A stretch of DNA of 45,632 bases. It comes from Campylobacterota bacterium. Lineage in GTDB: Bacteria > Campylobacterota > Campylobacteria > Campylobacterales > JAADDX01. Made by a program: the position numbers and the translations under genes. The notes under the pieces are model-generated. The model saw only the letters and a program-made list of their open reading frames with translations. It was not told where the DNA came from and ran no database searches. The stretch covers positions 1-45,632 of the forward strand of contig JAADDX010000083.1 in the NCBI GenBank assembly GCA_013153685.1, given 5' to 3'. Of this stretch, positions 4,158-28,418 are shown in pieces (the first letter of the stretch is position 1; each line of letters opens with the position of its first letter).

Positions 4158-4195
4158 GCTACTTTTGATTCACAACCTCACACAAAAGGACAACA

Positions 4196-5755
4196 ATGCA
4201 AGACACACAGATGAGTAGAAGGATTTTTATTGCTACGTTTATATCATTTTTGGTATTTATGGCATATGATTATTTAGTAGTCCAACCACAACTAGCCAAA
4301 CAAGCATCCACAAATACCACCATCCATACCAAACAAACTACCACCGATACGACATCTCAAACTACCGATATAAAAAGTGTTGATTCATTGCAAAATAAAG
4401 TCATAACCACGATAGAATCGGATGCGTTTAAGATACAAATAGATAATTTAGGTAGAATATCAGATTACATTTTAGAAAAAAACATCTTTAACGATTCTAA
4501 GGGTAAAAAACTACATATCTTAAGCAAAGAATTACCAAAAGTTCTAGAGATTAGATTCAAAAACGAAGCTCTAAATAAAGAAGCGTTTAATACGCCAGTA
4601 AGTGCTGATAAAACGTCAATCATCATCAAAGACAAACCACAAACTCTCACACTTACCCAACATCTAAAAACCCTAACTATCACCAAAGTAATCACATTTT
4701 ACCCAGACGGGCACTACGATCTCAAACTCAACTTATCAAAACCGGCTAAATATTTCCTCGCAGTAGGGAGAGTAAATGCCAATGTTAACATGTATGCTTT
4801 TCATGGTGCACTACTTGTAAATGACGATGATAGCTTGGAGATGATAGATGATGGAGAAGGTGAAGTAAAAACATTTACCAACATCAAAATAGCCGCAAAC
4901 GTAGATCAATATTATACTACGTTTTTATACAACCTCAAAAACAAAATGACAGTATATGAAACCATAGATAATCTCAAAAATCAAAATCCTTTATTATTCA
5001 TACAAGGAGACCAAAACCTAGACCTACACGGATATATAGGTCCAAAATACGTAAAAGTACTAGAAAATATCAATCCTACCTTAACCAAAGTAGTAGAATA
5101 TGGTATCATGACATTTATGGCTAAGCCAATGTTTTATGTATTAAATAGATTTTATGAGATGACTGGCAATTGGGGTGTGGCGATTATTTTATTTGTTGTG
5201 CTTGTGAGAATCTTGTTATTTCCATTAACATACAGAGGAATGGTGAGTATGTATAAGATGAAACTCATCGCTCCAAAACTACAAGAGCTCAAAGTCAAAT
5301 ATGCCAAAGATCCTAAAAAATTCCAAATCAAAACAATGGAACTTTACAGACGAGAAAATGTCAATCCACTTGGTGGATGCTTGCCGTTGCTAATCCAAAT
5401 CCCTATCTTCTTCTCTATTTATAGGGTATTGGTAAATGCGATCGAGCTTAAGGGAGCATCGTTTTTATGGATTCATGACCTAAGTAGCATGGATCCTTAT
5501 TTTATCTTACCTGTTTTGATGGGTGTGACTATGTATGCTCATCAGATGATTACACCAAACAACTTTACAGACCCTATGCAAGAGAAAATATTCAAATTCT
5601 TACCGGTGATTTTCACATTTTTCATGGCAACGTTCTCAGCTGGACTTGTGTTGTATTGGACTGTAAACAACATCTTATCTTTCATCCAACAATACATCAT
5701 AAACAAAAGCATGGAAGCAAAAGGACTAATGGATAAAAACCACAAGAGAAAATAG
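4196..5755 (+). CDS. yidC: Membrane protein insertase YidC
   Basis: N-terminal TM, periplasmic domain, GNWGVAII, NPLGGCLPLLIQIPIFF, WIHDLS..DPYFILP, GLVLYW. Confidence 0.96.
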   Translation: MQDTQMSRRIFIATFISFLVFMAYDYLVVQPQLAKQASTNTTIHTKQTTTDTTSQTTDIKSVDSLQNKVITTIESDAFKIQIDNLGRISDYILEKNIFNDSKGKKLHILSKELPKVLEIRFKNEALNKEAFNTPVSADKTSIIIKDKPQTLTLTQHLKTLTITKVITFYPDGHYDLKLNLSKPAKYFLAVGRVNANVNMYAFHGALLVNDDDSLEMIDDGEGEVKTFTNIKIAANVDQYYTTFLYNLKNKMTVYETIDNLKNQNPLLFIQGDQNLDLHGYIGPKYVKVLENINPTLTKVVEYGIMTFMAKPMFYVLNRFYEMTGNWGVAIILFVVLVRILLFPLTYRGMVSMYKMKLIAPKLQELKVKYAKDPKKFQIKTMELYRRENVNPLGGCLPLLIQIPIFFSIYRVLVNAIELKGASFLWIHDLSSMDPYFILPVLMGVTMYAHQMITPNNFTDPMQEKIFKFLPVIFTFFMATFSAGLVLYWTVNNILSFIQQYIINKSMEAKGLMDKNHKRK

Positions 5756-6715
5756 ATGCTTGGCAGTTTTAGATTCTTATTGGCATGGATAGTGATGCTA
5801 TCACATCTGCCATTTGCTCCTTTTAGCAAAGCATTCAATCCCGCAGTTAGCGGGGTGGTGATGTTTTATTTTATTAGTGGATTTTTAATGTATCATAGTT
5901 TCAATAGTGCCAAATCTATCCTTAAATTCTACAAAAAAAGATTTTTTCGTTTGTATCCTGTGTATTTTATCGTATTAACACTTACCATATTGGCAATAAC
6001 CTTATGGCACAATCCTACCATACCTCTTCTTAATCAACACCTAGATATTACTAAGCTTATACTAAATTACCTCTTAGTATTTAACAATTACGTATTTGCA
6101 CCATTTACGATACATACGTTATTGCCTCATCCACTAATCCCTCCTACATGGTCGTTATCTACTGAGATTCATTTTTATATTTTGGTGCCGTTTTTGTTTG
6201 GGTTGCTACAGAGCAGATCTAGACTGTTTTATGTTATCTTTTTAGGTTCTATGATTTTTGAGTTTGTTGCGTTTGCATATACAAAACCTACATTTAATTC
6301 CGATATATTTGGATATAGATATATCTTTGGGGTATTGTGGATTTTTATGTTTGGATTTTTGTTTGGGCATGATAGGCACTCTAAGTTTATCAAGTTTGTA
6401 TATGTTTGTATTGTTGTATATTTTATGTTTGTTGGATTTTATTTTACCAATCACGCTTATGTGAAGGAAATTTTATTAGCATTGCTATTTTTACCATTGA
6501 TACTTGTAATAAAAGATATGAATTTCAAATACGATAAATTACTAGGAAGCTTGTCATACCCTATTTTCATATCGCATTTTTTTGTATTTTATGTGGTATC
6601 TTACTTTACGCACAATAAAATATTGTTTTTTGCAGGAGTGTTTATAGGAGTCTTGGGTATATCTATAATACTTGCAAAAATACAAAATACAATATACCAA
6701 AAAGGAAAACAATGA
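5756..6715 (+). CDS. Acyltransferase family 3 (OafA/YrhL-like) membrane O-acyltransferase
   Basis: R..LA..V..SH, FYFISGFLM, FYKKRFFRLYP, TWSLSTEIHFY, LG.LSYPIFISH; multiple TM segments. Confidence 0.88.
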   Translation: MLGSFRFLLAWIVMLSHLPFAPFSKAFNPAVSGVVMFYFISGFLMYHSFNSAKSILKFYKKRFFRLYPVYFIVLTLTILAITLWHNPTIPLLNQHLDITKLILNYLLVFNNYVFAPFTIHTLLPHPLIPPTWSLSTEIHFYILVPFLFGLLQSRSRLFYVIFLGSMIFEFVAFAYTKPTFNSDIFGYRYIFGVLWIFMFGFLFGHDRHSKFIKFVYVCIVVYFMFVGFYFTNHAYVKEILLALLFLPLILVIKDMNFKYDKLLGSLSYPIFISHFFVFYVVSYFTHNKILFFAGVFIGVLGISIILAKIQNTIYQKGKQ

Positions 6716-7536
6716 AATTTCAAAAAATTGAATTCTTAAAACAAGCATTAAAAGAGGATATAGGACGAGGTGATTTAGCAAGAGATGTATTACCATCAAC
6801 CAAAGCTACAGCACACATTATAGCCAAAGATAACGGTATTTTAAGCGGTGTAGAATATCTAAGATATATCGATGAACTAGCTGAGCTTAAGATAGAGTGG
6901 TTCAAACAAGATAGAGATAAAATCTCAAATCAAGACATAATCTGTAGCATTAGCGGAAATAGTAAGGATTTGTTGAGTTGTGAGAGAGTGATATTAAATA
7001 TCTTACAACACTCAAGCGGTATTGCGACTAACGCACACAAATTCGCCAAACTAGCAAAAGGCAAAATCCACATCCTAGATACACGCAAAACACGACCGCT
7101 ACTTAGGACATTTGAGAAATATTCCGCAAAAGTCGGAGGTATCACCAACCATAGATTGGGGCTTGATGATTGTCTGATGCTAAAAGATACTCACTTAGCA
7201 CTCTTTAAGAGTATATCACAAGCCATCGCACATGCAAGAGCAGAAATCCCATGGACTACCAAAATCGAAGTCGAATGTGAAACGTTTGAGATGGCAAAAG
7301 AAGCTATGAAGTGTGGTGTGGAGATAGTGATGTGTGATAATATGACACATAAAGAAATCAAAAAAGTTGTCAAATATAGAAACGAACACTACCCACAAAC
7401 ACTAATAGAAGTAAGCGGAAATATTACATTAGAAAACATCCAAAAATACATATCACTAGGAATCGATGCAATTAGTAGCGGTAGTATCATCCATCAAGCG
7501 GTGTTCCTAGACTTCTCAATGAAAATCAAAACATAA
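6712..7536 (+). CDS. nadC: Quinolinate phosphoribosyltransferase (decarboxylating)
   Basis: EDIGRGD, LDTRKTRP, NHRLGLDD..MLKDTH, IEVECE, EVSGNI. Confidence 0.96.
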   Translation: MKFQKIEFLKQALKEDIGRGDLARDVLPSTKATAHIIAKDNGILSGVEYLRYIDELAELKIEWFKQDRDKISNQDIICSISGNSKDLLSCERVILNILQHSSGIATNAHKFAKLAKGKIHILDTRKTRPLLRTFEKYSAKVGGITNHRLGLDDCLMLKDTHLALFKSISQAIAHARAEIPWTTKIEVECETFEMAKEAMKCGVEIVMCDNMTHKEIKKVVKYRNEHYPQTLIEVSGNITLENIQKYISLGIDAISSGSIIHQAVFLDFSMKIKT

Positions 7537-7574
7537 CCGCAAAACATAGCAACAAGCTTATGCCGGTTGCGGTT
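7535..7574. terminator. Possible stem-loop at the convergent nadC / K+ channel junction
   Basis: AACCGCAA (7535-7542) pairs with TTGCGGTT (7567-7574); long loop and weak U-tract. Confidence 0.3.
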
Positions 7575-9237
7575 TTGGCAAAGATGTAATTTCCGGTCTA
7601 TCTAATACGTATTCTAATTCATAGATGTTATTAAGGATGTATTCAAAGTCCTCGATCTCCTCTGTGTTAGCCGCGATCAACAATCTATCGCCAATTTGAA
7701 TTTCCGTATCATTAGATGGAATCAATACTTTATTTCTATCTCTCTCTAACAACAAGTATACTATTTTGAGCGTATCTTTTCTGTTGGCTCTTGAGCGTTT
7801 TAATTCACCTAGCGTAATACTCTCACCACTTTGCAATCTTCTATGCAACGCATACGCATGATTTTTATCTATCGTTGTCTCATAATATAGTGGATTATCA
7901 CCGATAATTGTTAGCAACTTAGCTACGATAACTTGTCCTAAATGGTCATTTCTTCTATCTTTTACAGTATTTAAGAAATCATTTACCACCGGTCTTGATA
8001 TGATATTGATAGTATAATCAGACAATACTTTCTCTAAAATATAGATCCTATCCATATGTGCCGCTTCAAAAATCGCCGCATCATCTAGTGAATTTTCTCT
8101 TGCGATAGCATAAATATTTGGATTAATCTCTTTGGCTTTATTTAGCAAAGTTAGATTTAGCATATCATCACTTGTAGCAGCAATAATAGCTTCAAAAGTC
8201 TCTAGCTGGAACTGTTGCAATATTTTCTGATCTTCTTCATCACCAAATACCATACTACCCTTCTCTTCTAAATAATCCTTAGGGTCGATATTATATATCT
8301 CATACTCAATATTCGCTTTTGCTAAAGCATCAGCAATAGCACTTCCCATTCTTCCATGACCGCAAATTAAATATTTCCCTTTTGGCAAGAAATCATGATC
8401 ATCAAAAAACAAACTTTGCCCATACACCCATCTCTCTAGTATATATACATAAGGTGTGACGATGTTGTTGTATATTTGACTTGCTACGATTGTAAATGGG
8501 TTGAGAATATGTTCAATCCCAATTGAGTTGTAATAATTGATGTGATTTTTTGATGTAGCTTTTACTATAATGTCTATATCGTGATTTAACAATCTAGCTA
8601 CGGTGATAGCTTGCATGTTTTTCGCATCTTTGTCAAATAATGAAATAATCCCTTTACAATTTGGCAAATCAATCCCCGCTAACGTTAGTATATTCTCACT
8701 AGTAGGATTTCCTACTATAGATGGCACATAAGGGTAGAAATCTTCTAGATTGAGCTCTTCTATATGCAATGGATTTTCATCTATTACTACAAATCTACTA
8801 TACCCATTGGCTTCTTCGATAATATTTTTGGTTACTTTTGTATATTCAAGTATGATATAAAAGTCCTCTTTGAGATTTTTTACTTGTTTTCTAAAACGGT
8901 TGATTTTGATTGCTTTTTGTAACGCTTCATCTTGGATTAGAGATATAATAGCCCCAATAGCATAAAACCATCCTACAACAGACAAATAAATAGCCACACT
9001 CACCCATAATCTTTGAGCATAAGTAAATGTATAAGGAGTCTCACCAAATCCAATAGTAGTAGCCATATAACTAACAAAATAAAACGCATCAAAAAAATTC
9101 AAATGATATACATGTCCATGATTATCAACCCCAGGGACCATAATCATCCCTATGATAGAGATTGAAAAGGTGATGAGTATTACTAAAAACGGAACCCGAA
9201 GTTTTTTTAGAACAATCCAGACTAATTGGTCATTCAT
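7558..9237 (-). CDS. Potassium channel protein (2TM pore plus tandem RCK/TrkA-N domains)
   Basis: FFDAFYFVSYMATTIGFGE pore signature; Rossmann-like GHGRMG in the second RCK domain; C-terminal GDRLLIAA. Confidence 0.88.
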   Translation of the reverse strand: MNDQLVWIVLKKLRVPFLVILITFSISIIGMIMVPGVDNHGHVYHLNFFDAFYFVSYMATTIGFGETPYTFTYAQRLWVSVAIYLSVVGWFYAIGAIISLIQDEALQKAIKINRFRKQVKNLKEDFYIILEYTKVTKNIIEEANGYSRFVVIDENPLHIEELNLEDFYPYVPSIVGNPTSENILTLAGIDLPNCKGIISLFDKDAKNMQAITVARLLNHDIDIIVKATSKNHINYYNSIGIEHILNPFTIVASQIYNNIVTPYVYILERWVYGQSLFFDDHDFLPKGKYLICGHGRMGSAIADALAKANIEYEIYNIDPKDYLEEKGSMVFGDEEDQKILQQFQLETFEAIIAATSDDMLNLTLLNKAKEINPNIYAIARENSLDDAAIFEAAHMDRIYILEKVLSDYTINIISRPVVNDFLNTVKDRRNDHLGQVIVAKLLTIIGDNPLYYETTIDKNHAYALHRRLQSGESITLGELKRSRANRKDTLKIVYLLLERDRNKVLIPSNDTEIQIGDRLLIAANTEEIEDFEYILNNIYELEYVLDRPEITSLPKPQPA

Positions 9238-9240
9238 TGC

Positions 9241-9621
9241 TTATCTTTTTGATTTGATAGTATCAGCTATAAACAAGATCACAGATACCATATTCGCAAG
9301 CAATGCTCCACCAGATAAGGAAATAATAGTAGCCGCAGTTGTGACATTAAAATCACTCACACCATACAAAGCAACTCCCCATACCACAGCCGCACTTAAA
9401 AGTTGCAAATCAGCTACCAAACTTGTAGATAATAACACTGCTCCTAGCTGAGTCTTATCACCGAGCTTCAAAGAAGTCGCGATTAAATTGACAATAATTG
9501 CAGCAAACAATTCATATTGGCTATGCTGTTGGATATTGGTCAAATCTCCATAAAAAAATCCAAAATTCAACGTCATAGCCAAAATGAAAAAAAATCCACT
9601 AACGATTTTATACACGTTCAT
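9241..9621 (-). CDS. Small multi-TM membrane protein (resembles DUF6394 family)
   Basis: Hydrophobic 126 aa with GFFFILAMTLNFGFFYG and LVADLQL; ends 3 nt before the channel start. Confidence 0.75.
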   Translation of the reverse strand: MNVYKIVSGFFFILAMTLNFGFFYGDLTNIQQHSQYELFAAIIVNLIATSLKLGDKTQLGAVLLSTSLVADLQLLSAAVVWGVALYGVSDFNVTTAATIISLSGGALLANMVSVILFIADTIKSKR

Positions 9622-9649
9622 ATTTACGCCCCTTAATTTGATTTAGAGA

Positions 9650-9658
9650 ATTATATCA
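9650..9658 (-). promoter_or_regulatory. Extended -10 (TGaTATAAT) for the small membrane protein / K+ channel operon
   Basis: Reverse complement of attatatca, about 30 nt upstream of start 9621. Confidence 0.6.
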
Positions 9659-9730
9659 CGAAACAATTTCCCCAAATCCAAAAAAATATAAAATTTCAAA
9701 TAATTTTTTACAAAGTGTTACAAATTTTCA

Positions 9731-10375
9731 CTATCGAAAAAGTGCACTCCCTATACGCACCATATTACTACCACACTTAATAGCTAATTCAAAATCATTA
9801 CTCATCCCCATAGAACACACCTTAGCACCATGAGGGCGTAATTGTTCAAAAATCTTATAAGTAAGCTCAAATGATTTGATAATTTCTTTTTGATTATCAG
9901 TATGAGCACCGATAGTCATTACCCCTTGTAGACGGATATTTGGACATTCTTGTAGTATTTGATGATATACATCTACCGCCTCTTGTGCCATAACGCCATG
10001 CTTGCTTACTTCGTTTGCGGAATTAATCTCTAATAGACATCTCATAGGCTTAGTAGTTCTTTTATCGATTGCTTTGGCAAGGTCTACAGAATTGATAGAT
10101 TGTATCATAAAAGGCTCTAGGCTTAATAATTTGTTGATTTTATTTTTTTGTAAATTTCCTATAAAATGCCATTCAATAGGCAAATCACTTAATTGTTGTG
10201 CTTTACTGTACATATCTTGGACTTTGTTCTCACCAAATGCTCTTTGTCCTTGATTGTATAGTTGCTCAATAGCACTCGCATCCACATATTTGCTAACTGC
10301 TATCAATTTTACTATTAGATGTTCATTAACAGACAATCTTGCTTTTTCGATTCTTTGTATAATTTCCTCTAACAT
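9731..10375 (-). CDS. yggS: PLP homeostasis protein YggS
   Basis: LIAVSKY, FGENKVQ, WHFIGNLQKNK, SMGMSNDFELAI..GSNMVRIGS. Start moved to ATG 10375 (10378 possible) behind GGAGG. Confidence 0.94.
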   Translation of the reverse strand: MLEEIIQRIEKARLSVNEHLIVKLIAVSKYVDASAIEQLYNQGQRAFGENKVQDMYSKAQQLSDLPIEWHFIGNLQKNKINKLLSLEPFMIQSINSVDLAKAIDKRTTKPMRCLLEINSANEVSKHGVMAQEAVDVYHQILQECPNIRLQGVMTIGAHTDNQKEIIKSFELTYKIFEQLRPHGAKVCSMGMSNDFELAIKCGSNMVRIGSALFR

Positions 10376-15818: not shown

Positions 15819-17234
15819 TTGAAAAAAGTTTTATTATTAATTCAAGGGAATGAAGCAAAACGCTTCATTCAAAGCATTATCAAAGATTATATAAATGTAG
15901 CGGAGTTTGATATCGTATATCAAAACGACGACGATATCAAAGAGGATTTCAAAGTTGATGGTATTAGCTTTTATAAAATTCCATTTAGTGATTTTACCAA
16001 GTTATCATACTTCAAAGATAAAGATTATTCCAAGGTTATCATCGTAATCAAAAACAAATTTTTCGCACTAAATGCACTAAAAGCTGTAGAGTTTTTTATC
16101 AGCAAAAATATACTCATTGAGCTGGTGAAGTTTTGGGATATCGAAATCCAAAGCAAAAATATCAACGTCATCACAATCCCGAATATTATCAATTCTACAC
16201 TCATTGATCTTTTGCCAAACGTGCCGGTGTTTGCCAGAAATATAGGGCTTGGTAAAGAGGAAATTATGGAAGTAGAGGTGCCAGCAAGTAGTGTGTTTGT
16301 ATATAGGAATGTAGAACTTTTAAACAATGAAAACAAACAAAAATGGCGAATAGTAGCTATTTATAGAAATGATAAATTGATTTTACCCAACAAAATGACT
16401 ACTATTCATCATTACGATAAATTAGTAATCATCGGGCAAGCCAATATCCTCAAAGACGTCTACAAAAGTATCAAAAAAGACGTTGGATTATTTCCAGCCC
16501 CTTATGGAAATAATATCTACTTGCTAATTGATAGAAAAACCATGAATAGATTGCAAGTAAGTAAGCTTCTAAAATCCGCAATTTATTTACATAGAAAATT
16601 AAAATCCAAAAAACTTATCATCAAAATTATCAATCCAAATCTCCATCGATTCAAAAAACTAGACAATATAGAGGGTATTGAGGTATATGTGGATTATCAC
16701 GCTACTGATATGTATGAAGTCATTATGCAAGATATACTCAAATTCAGCATCGGTATGTTTATTATCGATAACAAATTTTATTACAAAAACATAAATTTCC
16801 TCCTCAAACTCAAAAAACCATTTCTCAAAATCGGAGATGAAGAGAGTATCAAAAAATGCACTCAAAGTGCTTTGATTTTGGAAGATAGTGATGCTATTAC
16901 GGAAATATCGCCGTTGGTATTTGATATCTCAAGCCAACTAGAATATAAAATCAAATTTTTAGACATCGATCCAGAAAATGTCAAACTCACCAAAAAAGAT
17001 ATCACCATCTACTACGAAAATATCTCAAAAATGTACTATTACAAAAACGTAGAATTCATAGTCAAAAACAGCAATCCGTATTTTGAGATTCAAAAAATGC
17101 ATAATGTTTGCTTTTTTATGCCATTTAACAACAAAATCCCAAAAAACAAATTACTCTCATACTTGTTACCAAACAACACCAATATCCAACTACTACTTGA
17201 TAAATACAATCAATTCATGATACCGACAAAATGA
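15819..17234 (+). CDS. COG3400-like protein (degenerate RCK-N, TrkA-C domain, USP-like C-terminal region)
   Basis: NIGLGKEEIMEVEVPASSVFVYR, WRIVAIYRN, FPAPYG resemble the Campylobacterota COG3400 family; no TM segment. Confidence 0.75.
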   Translation: MKKVLLLIQGNEAKRFIQSIIKDYINVAEFDIVYQNDDDIKEDFKVDGISFYKIPFSDFTKLSYFKDKDYSKVIIVIKNKFFALNALKAVEFFISKNILIELVKFWDIEIQSKNINVITIPNIINSTLIDLLPNVPVFARNIGLGKEEIMEVEVPASSVFVYRNVELLNNENKQKWRIVAIYRNDKLILPNKMTTIHHYDKLVIIGQANILKDVYKSIKKDVGLFPAPYGNNIYLLIDRKTMNRLQVSKLLKSAIYLHRKLKSKKLIIKIINPNLHRFKKLDNIEGIEVYVDYHATDMYEVIMQDILKFSIGMFIIDNKFYYKNINFLLKLKKPFLKIGDEESIKKCTQSALILEDSDAITEISPLVFDISSQLEYKIKFLDIDPENVKLTKKDITIYYENISKMYYYKNVEFIVKNSNPYFEIQKMHNVCFFMPFNNKIPKNKLLSYLLPNNTNIQLLLDKYNQFMIPTK

Positions 17235-17242
17235 TATTGATT

Positions 17243-17265
17243 TTTAAGATGAAATTCATTATAAT
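17243..17265 (+). promoter_or_regulatory. Putative promoter (TTTAAG...TATAAT) for the repeat-protein / two-component operon
   Basis: TATAAT at 17260-17265 with upstream TTTAAG in a 57-nt gap; AAAGGGGAG RBS before ATG 17292. Confidence 0.5.
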
Positions 17266-17291
17266 TTGATAGTAGATTTGAAAGGGGAGAT

Positions 17292-19091
17292 ATGCGAAGA
17301 TTATTAATACTTTTAATTAGCTTAAATATTTTATTTGCTTACAAGGTAAAAACACCAAGCGATGTATTTTCATACGCAATGCTCTTGAAAAAAAAGGTAG
17401 AATACCTCAGAGCACAATCACATATCACTTCTCCATTCCCTAAAGTTCCGCCACAACACAACAAATATCCACGACACGTAATCCAAAAGGCACTAGAGAT
17501 TTTAAGCAAAATCAACTTATATAGAATCTCTAAAGGGTATGGAGCTATTTTTATCCCTCCGTATCCGGCACGGGAAATTACGCCAAGTGACGTATACGAG
17601 ATGGTAAAACGACTAGATGCGGAAGTGACGCCATTTATTAAAGATAGACAATTTCTAGAACACTTAACTCTTGTAAAATATCACAACAAAACCCCAAACG
17701 ACGTATATCAGCTATTGTGGTCTATCTCTTTGGCATTTGATAGCTTACTCGGTATTCATGGTTATACACCAACAGACGTATATGCTCTCTCACAAAAACT
17801 AGTAGAGACGGTAAAATTCATCAGAGAGACACAAAATATGTATAACATGCCATCAAAACCCAAAAAAATCCCAAATCTTCACCCAAATCATGCCTTATAC
17901 GCAAGCTATGATTTCCTCAGCAAAGTAAGAACTAGTGAGAAACACTTGTGGATAGATCCTACGGAAGTGCCTAAAAAACCACATAGAGTGATCACACCAA
18001 CAGACGTATATGATTCACTCCAATACAACATTGCAGAATTACAAAGGATCAAATACAGACTCGGTGTGGAGCGATACTTCAAGCTCAAACCGGTAAAAGG
18101 GAGTAAGACTCCAAGTGATGTAGTGCAAAATATCAAATACGCAAGAAGACTAATGCCGATTTTTTCTTTTGATAAGGAATTAATCCAATATCCTATCTCA
18201 TCACTACAAAAAACTCCTAACAACGTATATGCCGTAACAGAGGAAATACTCAAAAAAATCGATATTCTCAAAAACATCAAAGGGATAGCACAAAAAGCCA
18301 AAAATCCTCCATATATAGCGGGACTCAGACCAATCCATGCTTTCCAAAAAGCGATAGAAGCCACCGAAAAAGCGATTAGATTAAAAGTGCAAATGGGATT
18401 TTACCCTTCGGAAGTACCAACAGAACCGCTAAGGGAAATTACACCAAATGAAGTATATGAAATGGTAATTAGGCTAGATGGAATTATTACGATTTTACTA
18501 CACAAAGCCGGATACCACAAAACAGAAGAATACATCTACAAACCAAACAAAGAAATCCCATCATCAAAAACACCAAGCGATGTGTATCATAATTTGTGGT
18601 ATATCTCAAACAACCTAGACGTATTACTCGCAAGCGAATACACACCAAATGAAACATTCGCTATCTCAAATAGAATCAAAATCAAAATTTTATCTTTATT
18701 GCACAAAATGAAAATCAAAAAAAGTGCTATTGATGAGATTTTACACAAAAATATCATCCTAACCGAATCCAAAACACCAAAAGATGTATTTAATCTCACC
18801 CTTAGATTATATCACCAAATCAAACATATCCAAAAAAGAATGAATATGAGTGAGACAAGTATCATCATCCCAAAAGAGAGAATCATTACGCCAAATACCG
18901 TATATAACGCATTGCGAATCATTAATGCTAGTATCAACGAAATCCTTATTTACAAAGATATTGATGAATCTGATATCATATATCCTATGGTATTGCCAAA
19001 AGATAAGACACCAAGTGACGTATACAAAAACGTAACTAAGCTAAGAGAGTTGTTAGGATTATTATATCAAGAGAGTGATTATGAAGATTAA
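17292..19091 (+). CDS. Exported repeat protein of unknown function (16 x ~38-aa TPxDV-helix units)
   Basis: 599-aa ORF with RBS; Sec-type signal MRRLLILLISLNILFA; no family recognised; 3' end overlaps the kinase start. Confidence 0.85.
   Translation: MRRLLILLISLNILFAYKVKTPSDVFSYAMLLKKKVEYLRAQSHITSPFPKVPPQHNKYPRHVIQKALEILSKINLYRISKGYGAIFIPPYPAREITPSDVYEMVKRLDAEVTPFIKDRQFLEHLTLVKYHNKTPNDVYQLLWSISLAFDSLLGIHGYTPTDVYALSQKLVETVKFIRETQNMYNMPSKPKKIPNLHPNHALYASYDFLSKVRTSEKHLWIDPTEVPKKPHRVITPTDVYDSLQYNIAELQRIKYRLGVERYFKLKPVKGSKTPSDVVQNIKYARRLMPIFSFDKELIQYPISSLQKTPNNVYAVTEEILKKIDILKNIKGIAQKAKNPPYIAGLRPIHAFQKAIEATEKAIRLKVQMGFYPSEVPTEPLREITPNEVYEMVIRLDGIITILLHKAGYHKTEEYIYKPNKEIPSSKTPSDVYHNLWYISNNLDVLLASEYTPNETFAISNRIKIKILSLLHKMKIKKSAIDEILHKNIILTESKTPKDVFNLTLRLYHQIKHIQKRMNMSETSIIIPKERIITPNTVYNALRIINASINEILIYKDIDESDIIYPMVLPKDKTPSDVYKNVTKLRELLGLLYQESDYED
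17349..19064 (+). repeat. Intragenic protein-level repeat, 16 units, modal period 38 aa
   Basis: Motif prolines at aa 22, 60, 98, 135, 160, 198, 236, 274, 309, 347, 385, 428, 452, 496, 534, 574 (counted by hand). Confidence 0.9.
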
Positions 19092-21126
19092 AAAAATATC
19101 TCTATCAATCAAAATTGCATTGTTAGTAATGATAGTATCGTTTTTTGGGATTGCGACATTGGCGTATATCTCGTATGACCAATCCAAAAAAATCTTTACG
19201 GATCATACAGCCCAAATCTTGGCTAAAAATATCGATCAATATACCAATTTTATACGGGAAAATATCCAGAAACTAAGATACAATATCACAATTTTCTCAT
19301 ACAATCCATCGGTAAAAGGTTTTATGAGAAGTTATTTTAACAAATACAAATATGACGAAAAAACAAACAAAACATTTAGTCAATACAAAAAAGATATCAT
19401 CGCTATGATGCTATTTACAATGAAACAAAATCCAGCATATTTTCAGATGAGAATTATTGATGCGACAAATGGAGAGGAAATTGTTAAGCTAATTAGAAAC
19501 AACAATCAAATCCAAATCGCCAAACCTCATCTCCTACAAAACAAATGGAATAGAAATTATGTGCAACAAACACTAAAAAAACGTAAAGGTTGTTATATAT
19601 CACATATTAATCTCAACAAAGAATTTCACACTATAGAATACCCAATCAAGCCAACTATTAGGATAGCAAAAGTAATCTATGCCAACGGCAAAAAAGCCGG
19701 AATTGCAGTAATTAACGCGGATATCAAGAAATTGTTTGATTTTGATAAATTGATTAAAGCCAATGATTCTACGACTTTTATCGCCAATGAGGAGGGGTAT
19801 TATCTATTCAATCCGATTCATCCAGAGAGAGAATTTGGGTTTGAATTTGGTAGAGAATACAAAATCTTCTCGCGATATCCAGAATTAAAAGAATTTTTCA
19901 CCTCAAAAGACACCACGTTTTCTTATATTTGTTACAAAAACGACAAAATCCTAGAAGCAAGGAAAGTATTTATCTATCCGGATAGATTTATAGTAGTGTT
20001 AAAAACAACGACTTCATCAGTATTCCAAAACAAAGCCAAAGCCTATACCAAAAACCTCATCATCTCCATCATACTAATTACGCTTATTATTACGCTAATT
20101 ACGACTATTTTGGTAAGAATACTTACAAGTCCTATTAGGAAATTGACCGCTATTGCCAATAAAATAGCCAGAAACAAAGGTGCAGAACACTACAATATCG
20201 ATATTAACACCAATGATGAAATCGGAGAATTGGCACATTCGTTTGATGTGATGTTAAGTGCGATAGAAGAGAGTAAAAAAGAACTAGAAAAATTTGCTGA
20301 AAAACTAGAAGAGGAAGTGGAGAAAAAGACAAAACAACTCCAAGAAGTAAACAAAAACCTACAAAAGATAGTAGAAGAAAAAGTAAAAGAATTACGACAA
20401 AAAGACCAAGCCTTAGTACAACAATCAAAAATGGCAGCCATGGGAGAGATGATAGGTGCTATTGCTCATCAATGGAGACAACCTCTTAATTCACTAGCTA
20501 TTAATATCCAAATGTTGGAAGATATGGCTGATAATGACGAACTCACTCCTGAAGTATTGCATGATTTTATAGACAAAAATATGCAAACAATTGAATTTAT
20601 GAGTAATACGATTGATGATTTTAGAAATTTCTTTAGAAAAGATAAAGAAGCTGTGCGATTTAATGTAAAAGAAGCGATTGAAAAGACGATAAACTTACAA
20701 AGAGCACAACTAAGCAATCACAACATTGAAGTGATAACCGATTTACAAGATGGTTATACTAAAGGATTCAAAAACGAATTTATGCAAGTTATACTCAACT
20801 TAATATCAAATGCAAAAGACGCTATTGAGGAATATAGAGCCAAAACTAATAACAATTTCAAAGGCAAAATCTATATACAAACAAAACCTAAGGACGATAA
20901 AATACTCATTATCATGAGAGATAATGGAGGCGGTATTGAGCCAGAAGTAGCAAATAGAATCTTTGAGCCGTATTTTACAACCAAGGATGAAGGAAAGGGG
21001 ACTGGAATGGGATTGTATATGGTAAGAGAGATTATTAATAGAATGAATGGTTCAATTAAAGTCTCTAATGCACAAGATGGAGCGGAATTTATCATAGAAT
21101 TACCAAAGGATGACGATGAGAACTGA
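19081..21126 (+). CDS. Sensor histidine kinase (TM-dCache-like-TM-HAMP-coiled coil-HisKA-HATPase)
   Basis: Two TMs flanking a periplasmic domain; HAMP (PIRKL...DEIGELAHSF); H-box AIAHQWRQPLN; N-box NLISNAKDA; DNGGG; FEPYFTTK; GTGMGLY. Confidence 0.94.
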   Translation: MKIKKISLSIKIALLVMIVSFFGIATLAYISYDQSKKIFTDHTAQILAKNIDQYTNFIRENIQKLRYNITIFSYNPSVKGFMRSYFNKYKYDEKTNKTFSQYKKDIIAMMLFTMKQNPAYFQMRIIDATNGEEIVKLIRNNNQIQIAKPHLLQNKWNRNYVQQTLKKRKGCYISHINLNKEFHTIEYPIKPTIRIAKVIYANGKKAGIAVINADIKKLFDFDKLIKANDSTTFIANEEGYYLFNPIHPEREFGFEFGREYKIFSRYPELKEFFTSKDTTFSYICYKNDKILEARKVFIYPDRFIVVLKTTTSSVFQNKAKAYTKNLIISIILITLIITLITTILVRILTSPIRKLTAIANKIARNKGAEHYNIDINTNDEIGELAHSFDVMLSAIEESKKELEKFAEKLEEEVEKKTKQLQEVNKNLQKIVEEKVKELRQKDQALVQQSKMAAMGEMIGAIAHQWRQPLNSLAINIQMLEDMADNDELTPEVLHDFIDKNMQTIEFMSNTIDDFRNFFRKDKEAVRFNVKEAIEKTINLQRAQLSNHNIEVITDLQDGYTKGFKNEFMQVILNLISNAKDAIEEYRAKTNNNFKGKIYIQTKPKDDKILIIMRDNGGGIEPEVANRIFEPYFTTKDEGKGTGMGLYMVREIINRMNGSIKVSNAQDGAEFIIELPKDDDEN

Positions 21127-21793
21127 TGCACACCCTTATTTAAAACAACTAAAATGCCTCTATGTAGAAGATGAGGAAATGATTAGAGGCTCTTTTAGCA
21201 AACTATTACAAAAACACTTCAAAGAAGTAATCGTAGCTACAAACGGACAAGAAGGGATCCAGAAATATACCAACGATATCGATATCGTAATTACCGATAT
21301 TAGAATGCCCCAAATCAGCGGTATTGAGATGGTCAAACAAATCAAAGCCAAAAATCCTTTTGTTTTTGTGATTTTTGTAACTGTGCTAGATGATATGAAA
21401 TACCTCAAAGAAGCGATTAATCTAGGGGTTGAGGGATATATTAGCAAGCCGGTGGAATTTAATAAACTCATAGACAAGCTCAATCAACTTGCAGAAATAT
21501 TAGAACAAAAACATAACACCAAAAAACTCTTAACACTCCTTCAAGAGATTTTTGATACACAACCAACACCGATGATTTTATTACAAAATCAACAAATCAA
21601 GCTTGCAAATCAAGCTTTTAGCAAATTATTTAGCGATGTAAAAACGATAGAAGATTTGAATGAATATTTCCATATTGACTATACCAAACAAAGCCAAAGC
21701 ATCACAATCTATTACGAAAACAAAGAGATGTTGTTGAATATCTTTATTAGAAAGATTGATGATACGTTTTGTTTGATTTCGTTTAAAATCTAA
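21116..21793 (+). CDS. Response regulator (receiver plus short PAS-like tail, no recognisable DNA-binding domain)
   Basis: LYVEDE, TDIRMP (phospho-Asp), FVT, ISKP; tail PMILLQNQQIKLANQAF is PAS-like. Start 21110 or 21116. Confidence 0.88.
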   Translation: MRTDAHPYLKQLKCLYVEDEEMIRGSFSKLLQKHFKEVIVATNGQEGIQKYTNDIDIVITDIRMPQISGIEMVKQIKAKNPFVFVIFVTVLDDMKYLKEAINLGVEGYISKPVEFNKLIDKLNQLAEILEQKHNTKKLLTLLQEIFDTQPTPMILLQNQQIKLANQAFSKLFSDVKTIEDLNEYFHIDYTKQSQSITIYYENKEMLLNIFIRKIDDTFCLISFKI

Positions 21794-21802
21794 AGGATTC
21801 GT

Positions 21803-23338
21803 GTGAGAGTATTGTGGTTATTGATGTGGGTGGTATTTTTATTTGGTGCAGATAATAACACCACAATTGAACAACTAACACACAACCTACAATCAATCGA
21901 TAAAAAACTCTATGAGATGGATTTTTATGTAAAGTATGAAAATTACCAAAAATTACTTCAATTACAACAAGCCTTGGAGCTTATCCAAAAAGAGATTATC
22001 AAGCTCAAAAGACACAGACAAACATACAAAATCAAAAAACAACTCGACACTCTCAAACTCAAACAAATCGCTTACAAAAAGCAACTCGAGATAATGAGTG
22101 GCGGTAAAGACAATTTATTTGACGCACTAATTTCCATCTCACCACTACCAAAACCGTTTAGTATAACCAATCCATTTGCGATTTTCAGTGCTATTACCTA
22201 TATCAAAAACATCCACGAAACTATCAAAAAATACGAAGAAAAATACAAAGAACTAGATACGATTATCGAACTACTAAATCAAAAAATGGCTTTATACAAA
22301 AGCCTACATAAAAATTACGCCGATATCTACCAAACTATCCAAGATTTTACTCTCGCTAAGAGTATCTATTACTCAAAGCTTATGCAGCTCAAAACAGAAG
22401 CCAAGCTGTATATCCAAACGATGAAAAATGAAGAAAAAGCACAAATACAAAAGCTTATCACATTAATTATCACCATTTTTATTTCGGTGTTTGTATTTAC
22501 ATTGGTAAAGATGGCTTTTAGGAAATATGCTAACAATCTAGAAAATATCTATCTTATCAACAAAGTGATAAATTTCCTCAATTTCTCCGTAATTGTGTTG
22601 ATTGTGGCGTTTTTTTATATCGATAACGCTACTTATTTGATCACTATCTTGGGGTTTGCATCAGCAGGGATTGCAATTGCAATGAAAGATTGGTTTATGA
22701 ATATTTTTGGTTGGTTTGTAATATTAATTACCGGAAATTTCAAAGTAGGAGATAGAATCAAAATCATACTACAAAATGGGCAAGTAGAAGTGATAGGAGA
22801 TATTATAGATATTACCGCATCAAGGATAGTTATCCACGAAGATGTCACGCTTACAACATTTATCAAAAATAGAAGAGCTGGTAGAATCATATTCGTACCA
22901 AACAATGTCATTTTCACCAATCCAATCTTCAACTACACCCACAATGGTCTAAAAGCTGTGTGGGATGGAATCGATATTACAATCACATTCGACTCTGATT
23001 ACAAAAGAGCGGAATATCTAGCTAGGGAAATTACCAAAAAATATTCCAAAGGATATACAGACATTACTAGAAAACAGCTCAACAAATTAAGAAATGTCTA
23101 CAATATCAAAAATACCCAAGTAGAACCACGAATCTACACCTTCATAGGGGAGTATGGGATTGTGATTAGTTGTTGGTATCTAAACAACTACGCCACACTC
23201 AATCTACGCAGTAAAATTAGTGCGGAAATATTAGAAGCATTTAGAAACGAGAAAAATATCAAAATCGCATACAATACCATCGATATCAAGGTCAAAGATG
23301 AACAACCTTCTCAAACTAAAACATTTATACAACCTTAA
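21803..23338 (+). CDS. MscS-family mechanosensitive channel with N-terminal periplasmic coiled coil
   Basis: Signal peptide, coiled-coil region, 3 TMs with LGFASAGIAIAMKD, FKVGDRI, GRIIFVPNN. Confidence 0.88.
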   Translation: MRVLWLLMWVVFLFGADNNTTIEQLTHNLQSIDKKLYEMDFYVKYENYQKLLQLQQALELIQKEIIKLKRHRQTYKIKKQLDTLKLKQIAYKKQLEIMSGGKDNLFDALISISPLPKPFSITNPFAIFSAITYIKNIHETIKKYEEKYKELDTIIELLNQKMALYKSLHKNYADIYQTIQDFTLAKSIYYSKLMQLKTEAKLYIQTMKNEEKAQIQKLITLIITIFISVFVFTLVKMAFRKYANNLENIYLINKVINFLNFSVIVLIVAFFYIDNATYLITILGFASAGIAIAMKDWFMNIFGWFVILITGNFKVGDRIKIILQNGQVEVIGDIIDITASRIVIHEDVTLTTFIKNRRAGRIIFVPNNVIFTNPIFNYTHNGLKAVWDGIDITITFDSDYKRAEYLAREITKKYSKGYTDITRKQLNKLRNVYNIKNTQVEPRIYTFIGEYGIVISCWYLNNYATLNLRSKISAEILEAFRNEKNIKIAYNTIDIKVKDEQPSQTKTFIQP

Positions 23339-23939
23339 ATTTCTTAATGAGGAATACTTCGAAGGGTTTGAGATACAAAACGAGATACAAATCCCAAATG
23401 ATTATGAAGAATTAAAACAACTCGTCTCAAATTGCCGCCTATGTCCTCTATCACATCAACGCACTAACGTCGTATTTGGAGAAGGCAATCTCAAAGCTCA
23501 ACTTATGCTAATAGGAGAAGCTCCTGGTAGAGAGGAAGATTTGCAAGGTAGACCGTTTGTAGGGCGAAGCGGAGAGATGCTTACTAAAATGCTCAAAAAT
23601 GTCTTGGCATTGGATAGAAGTGAGGTGTATATCGCAAATATTATCAAATGCAGACCACCATTTAATCGAGATCCAAATATGGAGGAAATTGAAAATTGCA
23701 AACATTATCTTATCAAACAAATAGAAATTATCCAACCCAAACTCATAGTTACCCTAGGAAGAGTTGCGTTTAGTGCACTTTTAAATGATACGACACCTAT
23801 TACAAAGGCTAGAGGAAAGGTGTATAGTTTTATGGGAATCAAAGTCATCCCCACATTTCACCCTAGTTATTTATTGCGAAATCCATCCAAAAAGCGGGAT
23901 GCTTTGGAGGATCTAAACTTCATCAAAAGATTTTTATAA
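23298..23939 (+). CDS. Uracil-DNA glycosylase family 4 ([4Fe-4S])
   Basis: CRLCPL, GEAPGREED..GRPFVG, NIIKCRPP, TFHPSYLLRNP. Confidence 0.93.
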   Translation: MNNLLKLKHLYNLKFLNEEYFEGFEIQNEIQIPNDYEELKQLVSNCRLCPLSHQRTNVVFGEGNLKAQLMLIGEAPGREEDLQGRPFVGRSGEMLTKMLKNVLALDRSEVYIANIIKCRPPFNRDPNMEEIENCKHYLIKQIEIIQPKLIVTLGRVAFSALLNDTTPITKARGKVYSFMGIKVIPTFHPSYLLRNPSKKRDALEDLNFIKRFL

Positions 23940-23948
23940 AGATTGCTT

Positions 23949-24569
23949 ATGAGGTTTGATAGATGCAAAAGACTATTTGACAACTTTGATGAACTACAGC
24001 AATTACAAATCCTAATATGCGGTCTTGGTGGAGTTGGAGGATATGCACTAGATTGCCTATATAAAAGTGGTATTTGCAATATTACCGCTATTGATTATGA
24101 TATATTTGAGATACACAATCAAAACAGACAAATCGGTAGTGAATACGTGCATGAGAAGAAGACTGCCGTATTTCAAAAGCTATACCCAAATATACACACC
24201 ATAGATGTCAAAATCACTCCACAATGGCTAGAGGAATTTGATATAGGACAGTTTGATATAGTAATTGATGCAATTGATGATATTCCAGCTAAAATCGCTC
24301 TTATTAAAAAAGCATATCCCAATATAATCTCATCGATGGGAGCGGCAAAAAGGATTGATCCTACCAAAATCGAAATTACCACACTTAATAAAACTTATAA
24401 TGACCCTTTTGCAAAAGTAATCAGACAAAAACTCAAAAATTACAAAAAATTACAAGTCGTCTTCTCATCAGAAATACCGCGTTGCAAAGAGATGGGAAGC
24501 TTTATAGGGGTTACTGCTAGCTTTGGAATGGCACTTTGTAGCAGAGTGATTCAACTATATGGTAAATAA
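23949..24569 (+). CDS. tcdA: tRNA threonylcarbamoyladenosine dehydratase (ThiF/E1 family)
   Basis: GLGGVGG, NQNRQI, VIDAIDDIPAK, SSMGAA, DPFAK, VVFSSE, GS..GVTASFG. Confidence 0.85.
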   Translation: MRFDRCKRLFDNFDELQQLQILICGLGGVGGYALDCLYKSGICNITAIDYDIFEIHNQNRQIGSEYVHEKKTAVFQKLYPNIHTIDVKITPQWLEEFDIGQFDIVIDAIDDIPAKIALIKKAYPNIISSMGAAKRIDPTKIEITTLNKTYNDPFAKVIRQKLKNYKKLQVVFSSEIPRCKEMGSFIGVTASFGMALCSRVIQLYGK

Positions 24570-26663: not shown

Positions 26664-27792
26664 CCAAACTCTCTTTGATAATCTGATTGGCGATAGTAAA
26701 TTTGTCGTTTTGTGATAATATCACCTCTTTATCTTTGCTAATAAAAATCACTTCATTCGTATCACTCCCAAAGTCATTTTTAGTTAGCAAATTCAAACAA
26801 ATAGCATCACATTGTTTTTGGACTAAAGCTTTTTTGGCATACATAAGGGCATTCTCTTCATCCCTCTCAGCCTTAAATCCTATTTTCTTAATTCCATGTA
26901 TGCTTGCTAAAATATCTGGATTTTGAGTCAAATGAAGTGTTAGAGGCTGATTTGTCTTTTTAATCTTTCCGCGAACATATTGTGGTGCATAATCACTCAC
27001 AGCAGCAGCCATAAACAAATACTCACATCGACTCACAAGCTCATCTAAAATTGCCTTAAGTGAAGCTGCGGATGTGTATTTTACAACCTCGATATCCTTT
27101 GGCAAAGATGTATCTTTAGAGGTAACTAAAATAACATTAGCACCTTGTATATACAAAGCCAAAGCCAGAGCATTAGCCATTTTACCAGTAGAGAAGTTAG
27201 AGATATATCTTACATCATCAATCTTTTCTATACTTCCTCCTCCAGTAACAATAACATTCACCCCTTTATATAATCCCGCTGATGTAAGACGCAAAGCTTT
27301 GTAGAAAATATCCTTTACATCCGCCATCTTACCAACCCCCTCATCTTGGCATGCCAGCAAGCCCTCTTGAGCATGAATCACGTTTGGTAGATGTTGCAAT
27401 GCCTTTTGGGTAGTGGGATGTAGATACATATTGGTATTTGCAGCTGGGGCTATTAATACTGGTTTATTACACGCTAGATATACCTGCAATAATAAATTAT
27501 CCGCAATTCCACAATAAAGCTTATTTACGGTATTAGCCGTAGCCGGTGCGATAATAAAAATATCCGCCCATTTTGCGATATCTATGTGATTGTACTCATC
27601 CGCCCAACTCTCGCTTTGTGAAGTGAGGACTTTATTATGTGTGAGAGATTCAAAAGTCAAGGGCGTAATAAAACGACTCGCAGCCTCGCTCATCACCACC
27701 CTCACCTCATCACCGTTTTTGATAAACAATCTAATCAATTCCAACGTTTTATAAATAGCGATACTACCGCTTACTCCAATTAACACATTCAT
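26656..27792 (-). CDS. coaBC: Phosphopantothenoylcysteine decarboxylase / ligase
   Basis: GVSGSIAIYK, APATANT, APAANTNM, LAC...G.GKMA, IDDVRYISNFSTGKM, AAAVSDY, GFKAE. Confidence 0.95.
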   Translation of the reverse strand: MNVLIGVSGSIAIYKTLELIRLFIKNGDEVRVVMSEAASRFITPLTFESLTHNKVLTSQSESWADEYNHIDIAKWADIFIIAPATANTVNKLYCGIADNLLLQVYLACNKPVLIAPAANTNMYLHPTTQKALQHLPNVIHAQEGLLACQDEGVGKMADVKDIFYKALRLTSAGLYKGVNVIVTGGGSIEKIDDVRYISNFSTGKMANALALALYIQGANVILVTSKDTSLPKDIEVVKYTSAASLKAILDELVSRCEYLFMAAAVSDYAPQYVRGKIKKTNQPLTLHLTQNPDILASIHGIKKIGFKAERDEENALMYAKKALVQKQCDAICLNLLTKNDFGSDTNEVIFISKDKEVILSQNDKFTIANQIIKESLDV

Positions 27793-28418
27793 CTCATATC
27801 CTTGCTTAAACGTTTGTTTATGAGGTTGACACTCAATAAAATGATAAAACTAAAAATCAACATTATGATACTATAAACATTTGCCAAATGATAATCCAGC
27901 GTCTCCGTACACTCATAAATCGCTATACTAGCTACTTTCGTCACGCCATCAATATTTCCACCCACCATCAACACCACTCCAAATTCGCCCATAGTATGAC
28001 CAAAAGCAATCACACTCGCACTAAACAAAACCGGCTTGATATTTGGGATAATTACTCTAATTAATGTTTGAATTTTGGTTTTTTTAAGACTATAGCTTGC
28101 CTCTATCAAACTTCTATCAAAATGCTCAATGGCCGCCAAAATTGGATTAAACATAAATGGAAATGAATAAATAACAGATGCTATCAAAATCCCAACAAAA
28201 CTAAACGCCAAATTCGCCCATCCAAGCGTAATTAACAAATAATACCCAAGTACCGTCGGAGGCAATACAATCGGCAATGAAAAAACACTCTCTATAATCG
28301 TCTTAAACTTTCCTTGATAATTTGCCATCACAAATGCCAAAGGCACTGATATAACAAGCAAAATTACAGTAGTTAAAAAAGACAACTTAAAAGAAACAAC
28401 AAACGGAGTAAAATCCAT
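27789..28418 (-). CDS. modB: Molybdate ABC transporter permease
   Basis: LPIVLPPTVLGYYLL, EAA-loop-like LIEASYSL, FGHTMGEFGVVLMVGGNI.G.TKVASIAIY. Confidence 0.9.
   Translation of the reverse strand: MDFTPFVVSFKLSFLTTVILLVISVPLAFVMANYQGKFKTIIESVFSLPIVLPPTVLGYYLLITLGWANLAFSFVGILIASVIYSFPFMFNPILAAIEHFDRSLIEASYSLKKTKIQTLIRVIIPNIKPVLFSASVIAFGHTMGEFGVVLMVGGNIDGVTKVASIAIYECTETLDYHLANVYSIIMLIFSFIILLSVNLINKRLSKDMR

Follow-up and report, generated by a model that had tools for sequence, protein, structure and literature searches.

A repeat protein of an unnamed family encoded with a dCache histidine kinase as well as a response regulator in a Campylobacterota genome: a candidate three-part sensing system

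Sensor histidine kinases of several kinds are known to work with an accessory protein outside the cytoplasm. In the LuxP-LuxQ, TorT-TorS and ChvE-VirA pairs, a periplasmic protein is encoded with the kinase or acts on its periplasmic domain, and LuxP, TorT and ChvE all have the alpha/beta two-lobe fold of solute-binding proteins (SBPs). For CpxP-CpxA and QseG-QseE of Enterobacteria, a non-SBP accessory in the periplasm or outer membrane is reported to act through the extracytoplasmic domain of the kinase; of the two accessories, CpxP forms a small helical dimer that carries LTxxQ motifs, while QseG belongs to the lipoproteins. In ExoR-ExoS-ChvI of Sinorhizobium meliloti and other Rhizobiales, ExoR, a 268-amino-acid (aa) periplasmic protein with six Sel1 repeats, binds the periplasmic sensor domain (PF13756) of ExoS and is relieved by proteolysis (PMC4550343). 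Here we analyse a 45,632-nucleotide (nt) stretch of DNA from a Campylobacterota bacterium (contig JAADDX010000083.1 of assembly GCA_013153685.1), hereafter the window, in which three overlapping plus-strand genes encode a repeat protein (REP), a sensor histidine kinase with a periplasmic dCache domain, and a response regulator. We put the probability that the three form one operon and one three-part sensing system at roughly 0.6.

Set against the ExoR account, this system is alike in having an apparently exported helical-repeat protein, a kinase sensor bounded by two transmembrane (TM) helices, and three components, while it differs in the size and make-up of REP (599 aa, a TPxDVY unit, no Sel1 or TPR match), in a dCache rather than a PF13756 sensor, and in an output that, in relatives of the system, is synthesis of cyclic di-GMP (c-di-GMP) rather than an OmpR-type transcription factor (PMC4550343). 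Unlike QseG, REP has no lipobox cysteine; it shows sequence relation to neither QseG nor CpxP, and the CpxP/Spy LTxxQ family is absent from its Pfam and NCBIfam matches; unlike LuxP, TorT and ChvE, it consists of helices only in its structural model (predicted local distance difference test score, pLDDT, 88.3) and matches no SBP family. Gene arrangement is a further difference, as exoR is not known to be encoded beside exoS whereas the REP gene overlaps that of its kinase. The periplasmic domain of the kinase shares its fold with vpHK1S-Z8 of Vibrio parahaemolyticus (3lid, 3lie, 2p7j) and with TlpC, TlpA, Tlp3 and PctD, dCache entries whose titles name no partner protein, and the REP-linked subclade has in addition an invariant R...(Y/F)D...N loop. 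REC-GGDEF proteins of the PleD/WspR type correspond to the REC-(PAS)-GGDEF regulators of related operons and to a paralogue on another contig (C68) of the source genome, unlike the window regulator, which stops where GGDEF would begin. An earlier reading made from the sequence alone (the sequence-only reading) had described known kinase accessory proteins as having solute-binding folds, which is incomplete given ExoR (PMC4550343), CpxP and QseG, and had called REP a new type of periplasmic co-receptor, a term that implies ligand binding and names only one of the roles REP may have, inhibitor and scaffold being others. The principle of non-SBP kinase partners is known; what is new is the REP family, which goes closely with dCache/HAMP sensors and has c-di-GMP as its output.

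Conservation and make-up of the REP-kinase pair

The three genes, with the parts of REP and the kinase that concern export and sensing, are as follows.

17292..19091, plus strand: REP gene, 599 aa
17292..17342, plus strand: signal-peptide-like N-terminus of REP, residues 1-17, MRRLLILLISLNILFAY (direct reading; low pLDDT there)
19075..21126, plus strand: sensor histidine kinase gene (TM1, dCache, TM2, HAMP, HisKA, HATPase_c), 683 aa from GTG, with an alternative ATG at 19081
19177..20049, plus strand: dCache (double PDC) sensor domain on the periplasmic side, residues 35-325 of the kinase (AlphaFold2, Foldseek, PDB profile)
21110..21793, plus strand: response regulator gene (REC and a PAS-like stretch), 227 aa, with a second ATG at 21116

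The three genes overlap by 11-17 nt at both junctions, as in the sequence-only reading, and the ATG at 21116 is the start used by the database copy of the regulator (P0270). When one genome per species was scanned, 33 loci with a REP relative were found, at 33-79% identity, in Campylobacterota, Gammaproteobacteria (Oceanospirillum, Oleiphilus, Sulfurivirga), Magnetococcales, Rhodospirillales and a zetaproteobacterial metagenome-assembled genome (MAG). A profile search of all stop-to-stop open reading frames (ORFs) located a cognate sensor ORF directly 3' of REP, on the same strand, in 30 of the 33. Measured from the stop of REP, the first aligned sensor codon stands at -19 to +27 nt in 28 of these loci, at +105 in L031 and at +371 in L041. 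Two of the other three (L022, L033) end at REP, no more than 102 nt past its stop. Pfam, applied to the downstream proteins with L026 left out, found PF21623 in 25 and dCache_1 in one more, and the three left over, hybrid kinases of the Oceanospirillum type, were recognised through the sensor profile instead (E-values 1e-54 to 1e-64). The pair is kept across classes at REP identities of 33-40%. As a baseline, the 1.3 Mb of the source genome (G000) hold one REP, a single PF21623 sensor and 16 HAMP matches, and the REP and the PF21623 sensor adjoin. The REP-kinase link is strongly supported, and the expectation that homologues of the repeat protein would lie beside signalling genes was borne out. 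Copies of REP (73% identical), kinase and REC-GGDEF regulator also turn up in MAGs labelled Persephonella (Aquificota; L010 and P0014-P0016), which may be misbinned campylobacterotal contigs or the result of recent transfer.

That REP is a repeat protein is plain from its 13 TP-x-x-[VT]-[YFV] motifs (TPxDVY units), each followed by an amphipathic helix and spaced by 76-37-25, 76-38-35, 76-43-24 and 44-38-40 residues. Its two halves align over 290 residues at 28% identity (E 5e-26) and a profile of the ~300-aa relatives matches both of them (E 5e-69 and 4.5e-49), so that REP can be described as a tandem duplication of a ~300-aa unit. The AlphaFold2 model, made with 12 homologues (pLDDT 88.3; predicted template-modelling score 0.86), comprises 20 helices with long loops between them and no strand of three residues or more. 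The N-terminus (MRRLLILLISLNILFAY), read by eye, resembles a Sec-type signal peptide and has no lipobox cysteine, and hydrophobic N-termini occur in all 12 aligned homologues; REP is probably exported to the periplasm.

Searches for known relatives of REP gave little. Pfam and NCBIfam returned sub-threshold noise, the sole Pfam match at E-values up to 0.1 being PexRD54_WY (19.7 bits against a cut-off of 27), and none of the 20 family members scanned matched a Pfam model. Foldseek found no PDB match at E <= 0.001 with whole REP, rather than single halves, as the query; VIA-align against 48,161 chains had its best Z at 6.2 over 92 residues (IglD), in the generic range for helical proteins; and a sequence profile search of the PDB reached a best E of only 0.19. 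Protein atlas matches were unnamed clusters only, of 594, 611 and 303 aa. The family comprises at least 309 proteins at 90% clustering, most of them named 'hypothetical protein' at source, with one (P0106) carrying the JGI name 'dsDNA-binding SOS-regulon protein'; at 50% identity clustering there are 1068 clusters at E <= 0.001, 651 at E <= 1e-10 and 141 at E <= 1e-30. Its members fall into size classes near 600 and near 300 aa, and REP shares 83% identity with that of its closest relative. A literature search of limited coverage, without supplements, found no paper containing the string TPSDVY, and one of similarly limited coverage found nothing on the family in work on dCache accessory proteins or Campylobacterota c-di-GMP signalling. 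The REP family is thus a large and unnamed one with its own repeat unit, and without a Pfam model or a convincing structural relative.

The dCache-like sensor that the sequence-only reading had assigned to the kinase was likewise recovered, as a PF21623 match over residues 102-282 (39.1 bits; cut-off 27) followed by HAMP (43.8 bits, 346-398), HisKA (33.0 bits, 456-524) and HATPase_c (78.6 bits, 568-679), the HisKA and HATPase_c pair making the protein a class I histidine kinase. Hydrophobic segments near residues 5-34 and 323-354 (window starts 5-16 and 323-336) indicate that the sensor domain sits between two TM helices and probably faces the periplasm. In the AlphaFold2 model of the sensor (pLDDT 88.4), two strand-rich modules (122-216 and 233-313) come after a long helix at 10-75. 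Foldseek places 3lid_A first (E 6.7e-13, target-normalised TM score 0.81, root-mean-square deviation 3.0), ahead of the dCache chemoreceptor domains of TlpC, TlpA, Tlp3 and PctD; a profile of 23 orthologous sensors also finds 3lid (E 3.7e-21), and several orthologues match dCache_1 as well.

Half-size paralogues (300-332 aa in Campylobacterota) are often found in comparable settings. In six campylobacterotal loci, the next gene encodes a dCache/HAMP sensor in four and a PAS-GGDEF(-EAL) protein in two; of the four sensors, those of G020 and G014 are dCache-GAF hybrid kinases, and those of G090 and G006:C28 are a PF21623 sensor and a HAMP protein. An evenly drawn sample of 400 gammaproteobacterial genomes yielded 23 with a match at E <= 1e-10 and, from these, 22 half-size or other loci. 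The next protein on the same strand has a ~210-390-residue N-terminal region followed by HAMP, or PF21623, in 13 of the 22, and is a MASE1-CHASE sensor in one; next come ORFs without a family in three (L078, L089, L094), a methyltransferase, GyrB, CheW or opposite-strand glycosyltransferase in four, and in one (L090) an adjoining ORF of merely 65 aa that was left out of the scan. Among the campylobacterotal paralogues, L044 (G006 contig C44, locus 4187-9851) has two tandem cassettes of a ~305-aa half-size REP and a PAS-GGDEF(-EAL) protein, the latter with no Pfam match in its first ~260 residues, and more GGDEF-EAL genes flank them. G014 has, besides its half-size copy, a full-length REP apart from any kinase gene, and divergent beside it (L045:2313-7379, G014 contig C67) lies the gene for a 1689-aa GyrA with intein-splicing and LAGLIDADG domains.

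A predicted contact between REP and the kinase sensor

The complex of sensor residues 36-325 and mature REP (residues 18-599) was predicted with a 23-row alignment for each protein, taken from the same loci. The parts of the two proteins that meet in it are the following.

17880..17891, plus strand: REP residues 197-200 (HPNH), predicted kinase contact (complex prediction, alignment)
17982..17993, plus strand: REP residues 231-234 (HRVI, start of a TPxDVY unit; RVITP motif), predicted kinase contact (complex prediction, alignment)
19339..19383, plus strand: kinase residues 89-103, loop with Y93, D94 and N98, predicted REP docking site (complex and sensor models)

The interface prediction score from aligned errors (ipSAE) came to 0.70, 0.69 and 0.65, whereas the best of three controls had 0.00; partner pLDDT was 90, and contact agreement between the runs was 100%. 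The multimer prediction that the sequence-only reading had proposed for the repeat protein and the kinase periplasmic domain thus passed (0.69 against 0.00). Of 80 solved complexes 58 attain the mark used, as do 2 of 110 mismatched pairs, a calibration that holds only roughly because our own alignments were used. We know of no comparable complex, and recall of a solved structure is unlikely.

In the prediction, kinase residues 89-103 face REP residues 197-200 and 231-234. The kinase loop lies, in the sensor model, between helices 78-88 and 101-118, before the first strand-rich module; D94 and N98 are invariant in it and Y93 is kept at 96%, and mean conservation is 0.59 for the interface against 0.48 for the whole periplasmic domain. 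N199 and H200 do not vary on the REP side, where H197 and P198 are kept at 91%. The motifs H(P/S)NHAL of REP and R...(Y/F)D...N of the kinase are both kept in all 23 pairs, the four Oceanospirillum-type pairs likewise keeping the interface motifs, and (R/K)V(I/V)(T/S)P occurs on REP in most of the 23, with the variants E-V in L018, P-V in L029 and K-I/R-I in L023 and L027. The residues predicted to touch are, in short, the most conserved ones of both proteins.

Among 14 PF21623 sensors (from 41 relatives), the motif R-x6-9-[YF]D-x3-N-x-[TSK] is present in four, namely three that adjoin a full REP and the kinase of G014, all from genomes with a full-length REP; it is absent from the other ten, including two paired with half-size REPs. 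This co-occurrence fits the model without being independent proof of it, because the four kinases are orthologues. With conserved pairing, predicted complex and coincident invariant residues taken together, we consider a physical coupling of REP and kinase somewhat more probable than its absence. The core idea of the sequence-only reading, joint action of the repeat protein and the dCache kinase, fared well on three lines: the 30 of 33 loci, the half-size paralogues placed before HAMP/dCache sensors, and the complex prediction.

Output, proposed mechanism and alternative explanations

The window regulator matches REC (PF00072, 88.4 bits, residues 17-124) and, just below the cut-off, PAS_8 (21.3 against 21.8 bits), and nothing else; Pfam finds no GGDEF in its 227 aa, and a search of the window for a GGDEF remnant, with the GGDEF part of the L009 regulator as query, gave a best E of 0.17, at chance level. 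It aligns with residues 1-224 of the 394-aa L009 regulator, whose GGDEF occupies 235-384. In a collection of 5.8 billion proteins the 11 homologues other than itself at E <= 1e-20 are all REC-GGDEF proteins of 373-392 aa, and the best of them is only 48% identical to it, against the 83% found for REP in its closest relative. GGDEF lies within two genes 3' of the kinase in 21 of the 26 related loci scanned, arranged as follows.

REC-GGDEF: 8 loci
REC-PAS-GGDEF: 7 loci
REC-PAS-GGDEF-EAL: 4 loci
REC and GGDEF split over two ORFs: 1 locus
Relay with REC-GGDEF at its end: 1 locus

The remaining five have REC-SpoIIE, REC-HATPase, REC plus a REC-kinase (two loci), or no downstream regulator. Given these 21 of 26 loci, the usual output of the system is c-di-GMP, and the sequence-only description of the regulator as lacking an output domain is correct for the window copy (REC and a PAS-like part only) and does not extend to its relatives. 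The split regulator, L015:11805-13044 in a Hydrogenimonas MAG, consists of a 143-aa REC ORF and a 262-aa GGDEF ORF; whether through a frameshift or naturally, this is a second route by which REC and GGDEF are uncoupled. The REP-linked sensor of L020:2563-7276, in a Campylobacteraceae MAG, is a hybrid kinase of 1165 aa with three receivers, and the regulator after it is REC-SpoIIE (PP2C phosphatase) rather than a GGDEF protein.

Elsewhere in the source genome, which has 14 GGDEF matches in total, contig C68 encodes at 26694-27863 (L054:799-1965) a 390-aa REC-PAS_8-GGDEF paralogue with no kinase adjoining; it shares 49% identity with the window regulator and lies nearer than that copy to the regulators in the operons of relatives (51-56% identity). 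The regulator tree is poorly supported (1 of 12 inner branches) and does not tell which copy is the orthologue; the branch of the window regulator is 0.80 long and that of the C68 paralogue 0.39. The window regulator is, by these alignments, a truncated derivative of the REC-PAS-GGDEF regulators of related operons, probably by duplication and subsequent loss of GGDEF from the operon copy.

The mechanism we propose would begin with export of REP, which would act in the periplasm, where its HPNH and RVITP loops would dock onto the YD...N loop between the two N-terminal helices of the kinase dCache domain. Docking would alter kinase activity, by delivering a signal, by holding the kinase off until REP is removed, or by acting as a scaffold, and the kinase would then phosphorylate a REC-PAS-GGDEF regulator that sets the c-di-GMP level. 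In the source genome, more speculatively, the C68 paralogue is likely to serve as the enzymatic output, with the short regulator competing, taking up phosphate as a sink, or acting as a partner by way of its PAS-like part. A wider proposal, which we make tentatively and at rather less than even odds, is that the TPxDVY family consists of dedicated periplasmic partners, with a fold of their own, for dCache/HAMP receptors of all output classes (kinases, chemoreceptors, GGDEF-EAL), and so gives dCache access to cues beyond those it binds directly. Domains of this kind are among the commonest extracellular sensor domains of bacteria and are usually treated as self-contained binders of small ligands, and a widespread unnamed periplasmic family appears to travel with a subset of them. 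Were REP a true partner, ligand screens on isolated sensor domains would miss the real input, and a new protein fold would join the short list of kinase accessory proteins. The predicted contact is small and clear-cut (HPNH and RVITP meeting YD...N). The system feeds into c-di-GMP in sulfur- and iron-oxidising lineages of vents and marine settings.

Several points weigh against such a partnership, and some of them would suit a REP that is co-transcribed with the kinase and never touches it, be it an envelope protein of structural, protective or enzymatic kind with a dosage linked to the system, or something that the system regulates. Conserved operon membership is by itself no proof of contact; the complex score is the model's own confidence and not a measurement; the predicted interface is small, at 18-20 contacts; and the sensor motif may be a clade trait unrelated to REP. 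Export of REP rests on a reading of its N-terminus and not on a predictor tool. The loci are kin rather than independent, about 20 of the 33 being Campylobacterota and many of these Sulfurimonas, and no REP-sensor fusion was found among proteins of 1050-2995 aa, which is weak evidence. L040 has no kinase in the 7.9 kb downstream of its REP, a 376-aa copy with a degenerate N-terminus, and in G014 the 570-aa REP stands between the intein-bearing gyrA and a Mur ligase gene, likewise with no kinase adjoining. A membrane sensor was not found next door in 8 of the 22 gammaproteobacterial loci, and the half-size REPs and their sensors have neither interface motif, so that any binding of those sensors must differ and the mode is not general in detail. 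Against a REP that makes no contact stand its position, always as first gene and running by start-stop overlap into the gene for the sensor, in different phyla and for full- and half-size forms alike, as is typical of stoichiometric partners; the complex prediction, which passed with controls at 0.00; and the coincidence of the predicted interface with invariant residues on both proteins. G014 itself retains, on another contig, a kinase whose 290 bits place it fourth in the search with the REP-linked sensor profile, behind the three kinases that adjoin a full REP, and which shares the sensor motif; as both are retained though unlinked, the pair can be separated without loss of either. We therefore regard co-transcription without contact as improbable. 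That the adjacency is chance, or a quirk of a compact and overlap-rich genome, is hardly credible: tight overlaps are frequent in the window and no plus-strand terminator-like site was found in 17000-24000, but the pair is kept in 30 of 33 loci of distant lineages, which already refutes the idea, the only PF21623 sensor of G000 adjoins its only REP, there are just 16 HAMP matches in 1.3 Mb, and REP identities of 33-79% contradict a single recently transferred island.

A different question is what contact would do. REP could be a periplasmic inhibitor of the kinase, relieved by proteolysis or by titration under stress after the logic of ExoR-ExoS or CpxP-CpxA, instead of a co-receptor that carries a ligand; this is a sub-variant of the coupling favoured here, from which it departs in sign and in the input sensed. 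REP is a helical-repeat protein as ExoR is (PMC4550343), and the conserved, unstructured loops of ~17 residues between its helices would be open to proteases. The distal dCache module, moreover, keeps invariant or nearly invariant residues of its own (R126, Q155, K157, Y162, Y174, S176, N181, R196), a pattern that suggests the kinase may itself bind a small ligand; this counts against the mechanism proposed above, and small-molecule sensing could then stay with the kinase. On the other side, REP, over twice as large as ExoR, matches neither the Sel1 nor the TPR model, no conserved protease gene lies nearby, the genes past the regulator varying between loci, and our analysis gives no information on the sign of the effect. 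An inhibitory REP seems to us unlikely, if well short of far-fetched.

Upstream signals, transcript data and neighbouring genes

Two signals were noted in the gap before the REP gene.

17237..17265, plus strand: promoter-like TTGATT-17-TATAAT, 10/12 matches, within the 57-nt gap 5' of REP
17281..17289, plus strand: purine-rich Shine-Dalgarno-like AAAGGGGAG, ending 2 nt 5' of the REP ATG (direct sequence reading)

The ribosome-binding site of the sequence-only reading is this purine-rich AAAGGGGAG, 2 nt from the ATG. Of the promoter in that reading, TATAAT stands, whereas the TTTAAG offered with it lies 6 nt further in and makes a poorer -35 element than TTGATT. The TTGATT-17-TATAAT site is the best plus-strand promoter-like site across 17000-24000; support for it comes from position alone and not from statistical significance, because shuffled sequences hold more such sites (mean 31) than the 20 of this region.

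In three vent RNA libraries, contigs cover parts of the REP, kinase and regulator genes with 0-1 differences, and no library record crosses either gene junction by 31 nt per side. Libraries of this kind can contain DNA, and all runs held less than one fifth of the sampled words; the contigs over the three genes are proof of neither transcription nor an operon. One contig (X1, depth 9.2) has an extra A after 21520 and three nearby base differences; the extra A would break the regulator frame within the PAS-like part, and may reflect a strain difference, gene decay or a contig error.

The genes that flank the three (for a TrkA-C protein, an MscS-like channel, UDG and a ThiF-like protein) were not found by tblastn in related REP loci, so that only REP, kinase and regulator form a conserved set. 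Directly 5' of REP, 15819-17234 encodes a 471-aa protein whose only match is TrkA-C (residues 149-218, 40.6 bits). Starting 10 nt past the regulator, 21803-23338 encodes a 511-aa MscS-like channel with a signal-like start and an N-terminal extension of ~200 residues, its Pfam match being restricted to the beta-domain (39.6 bits).

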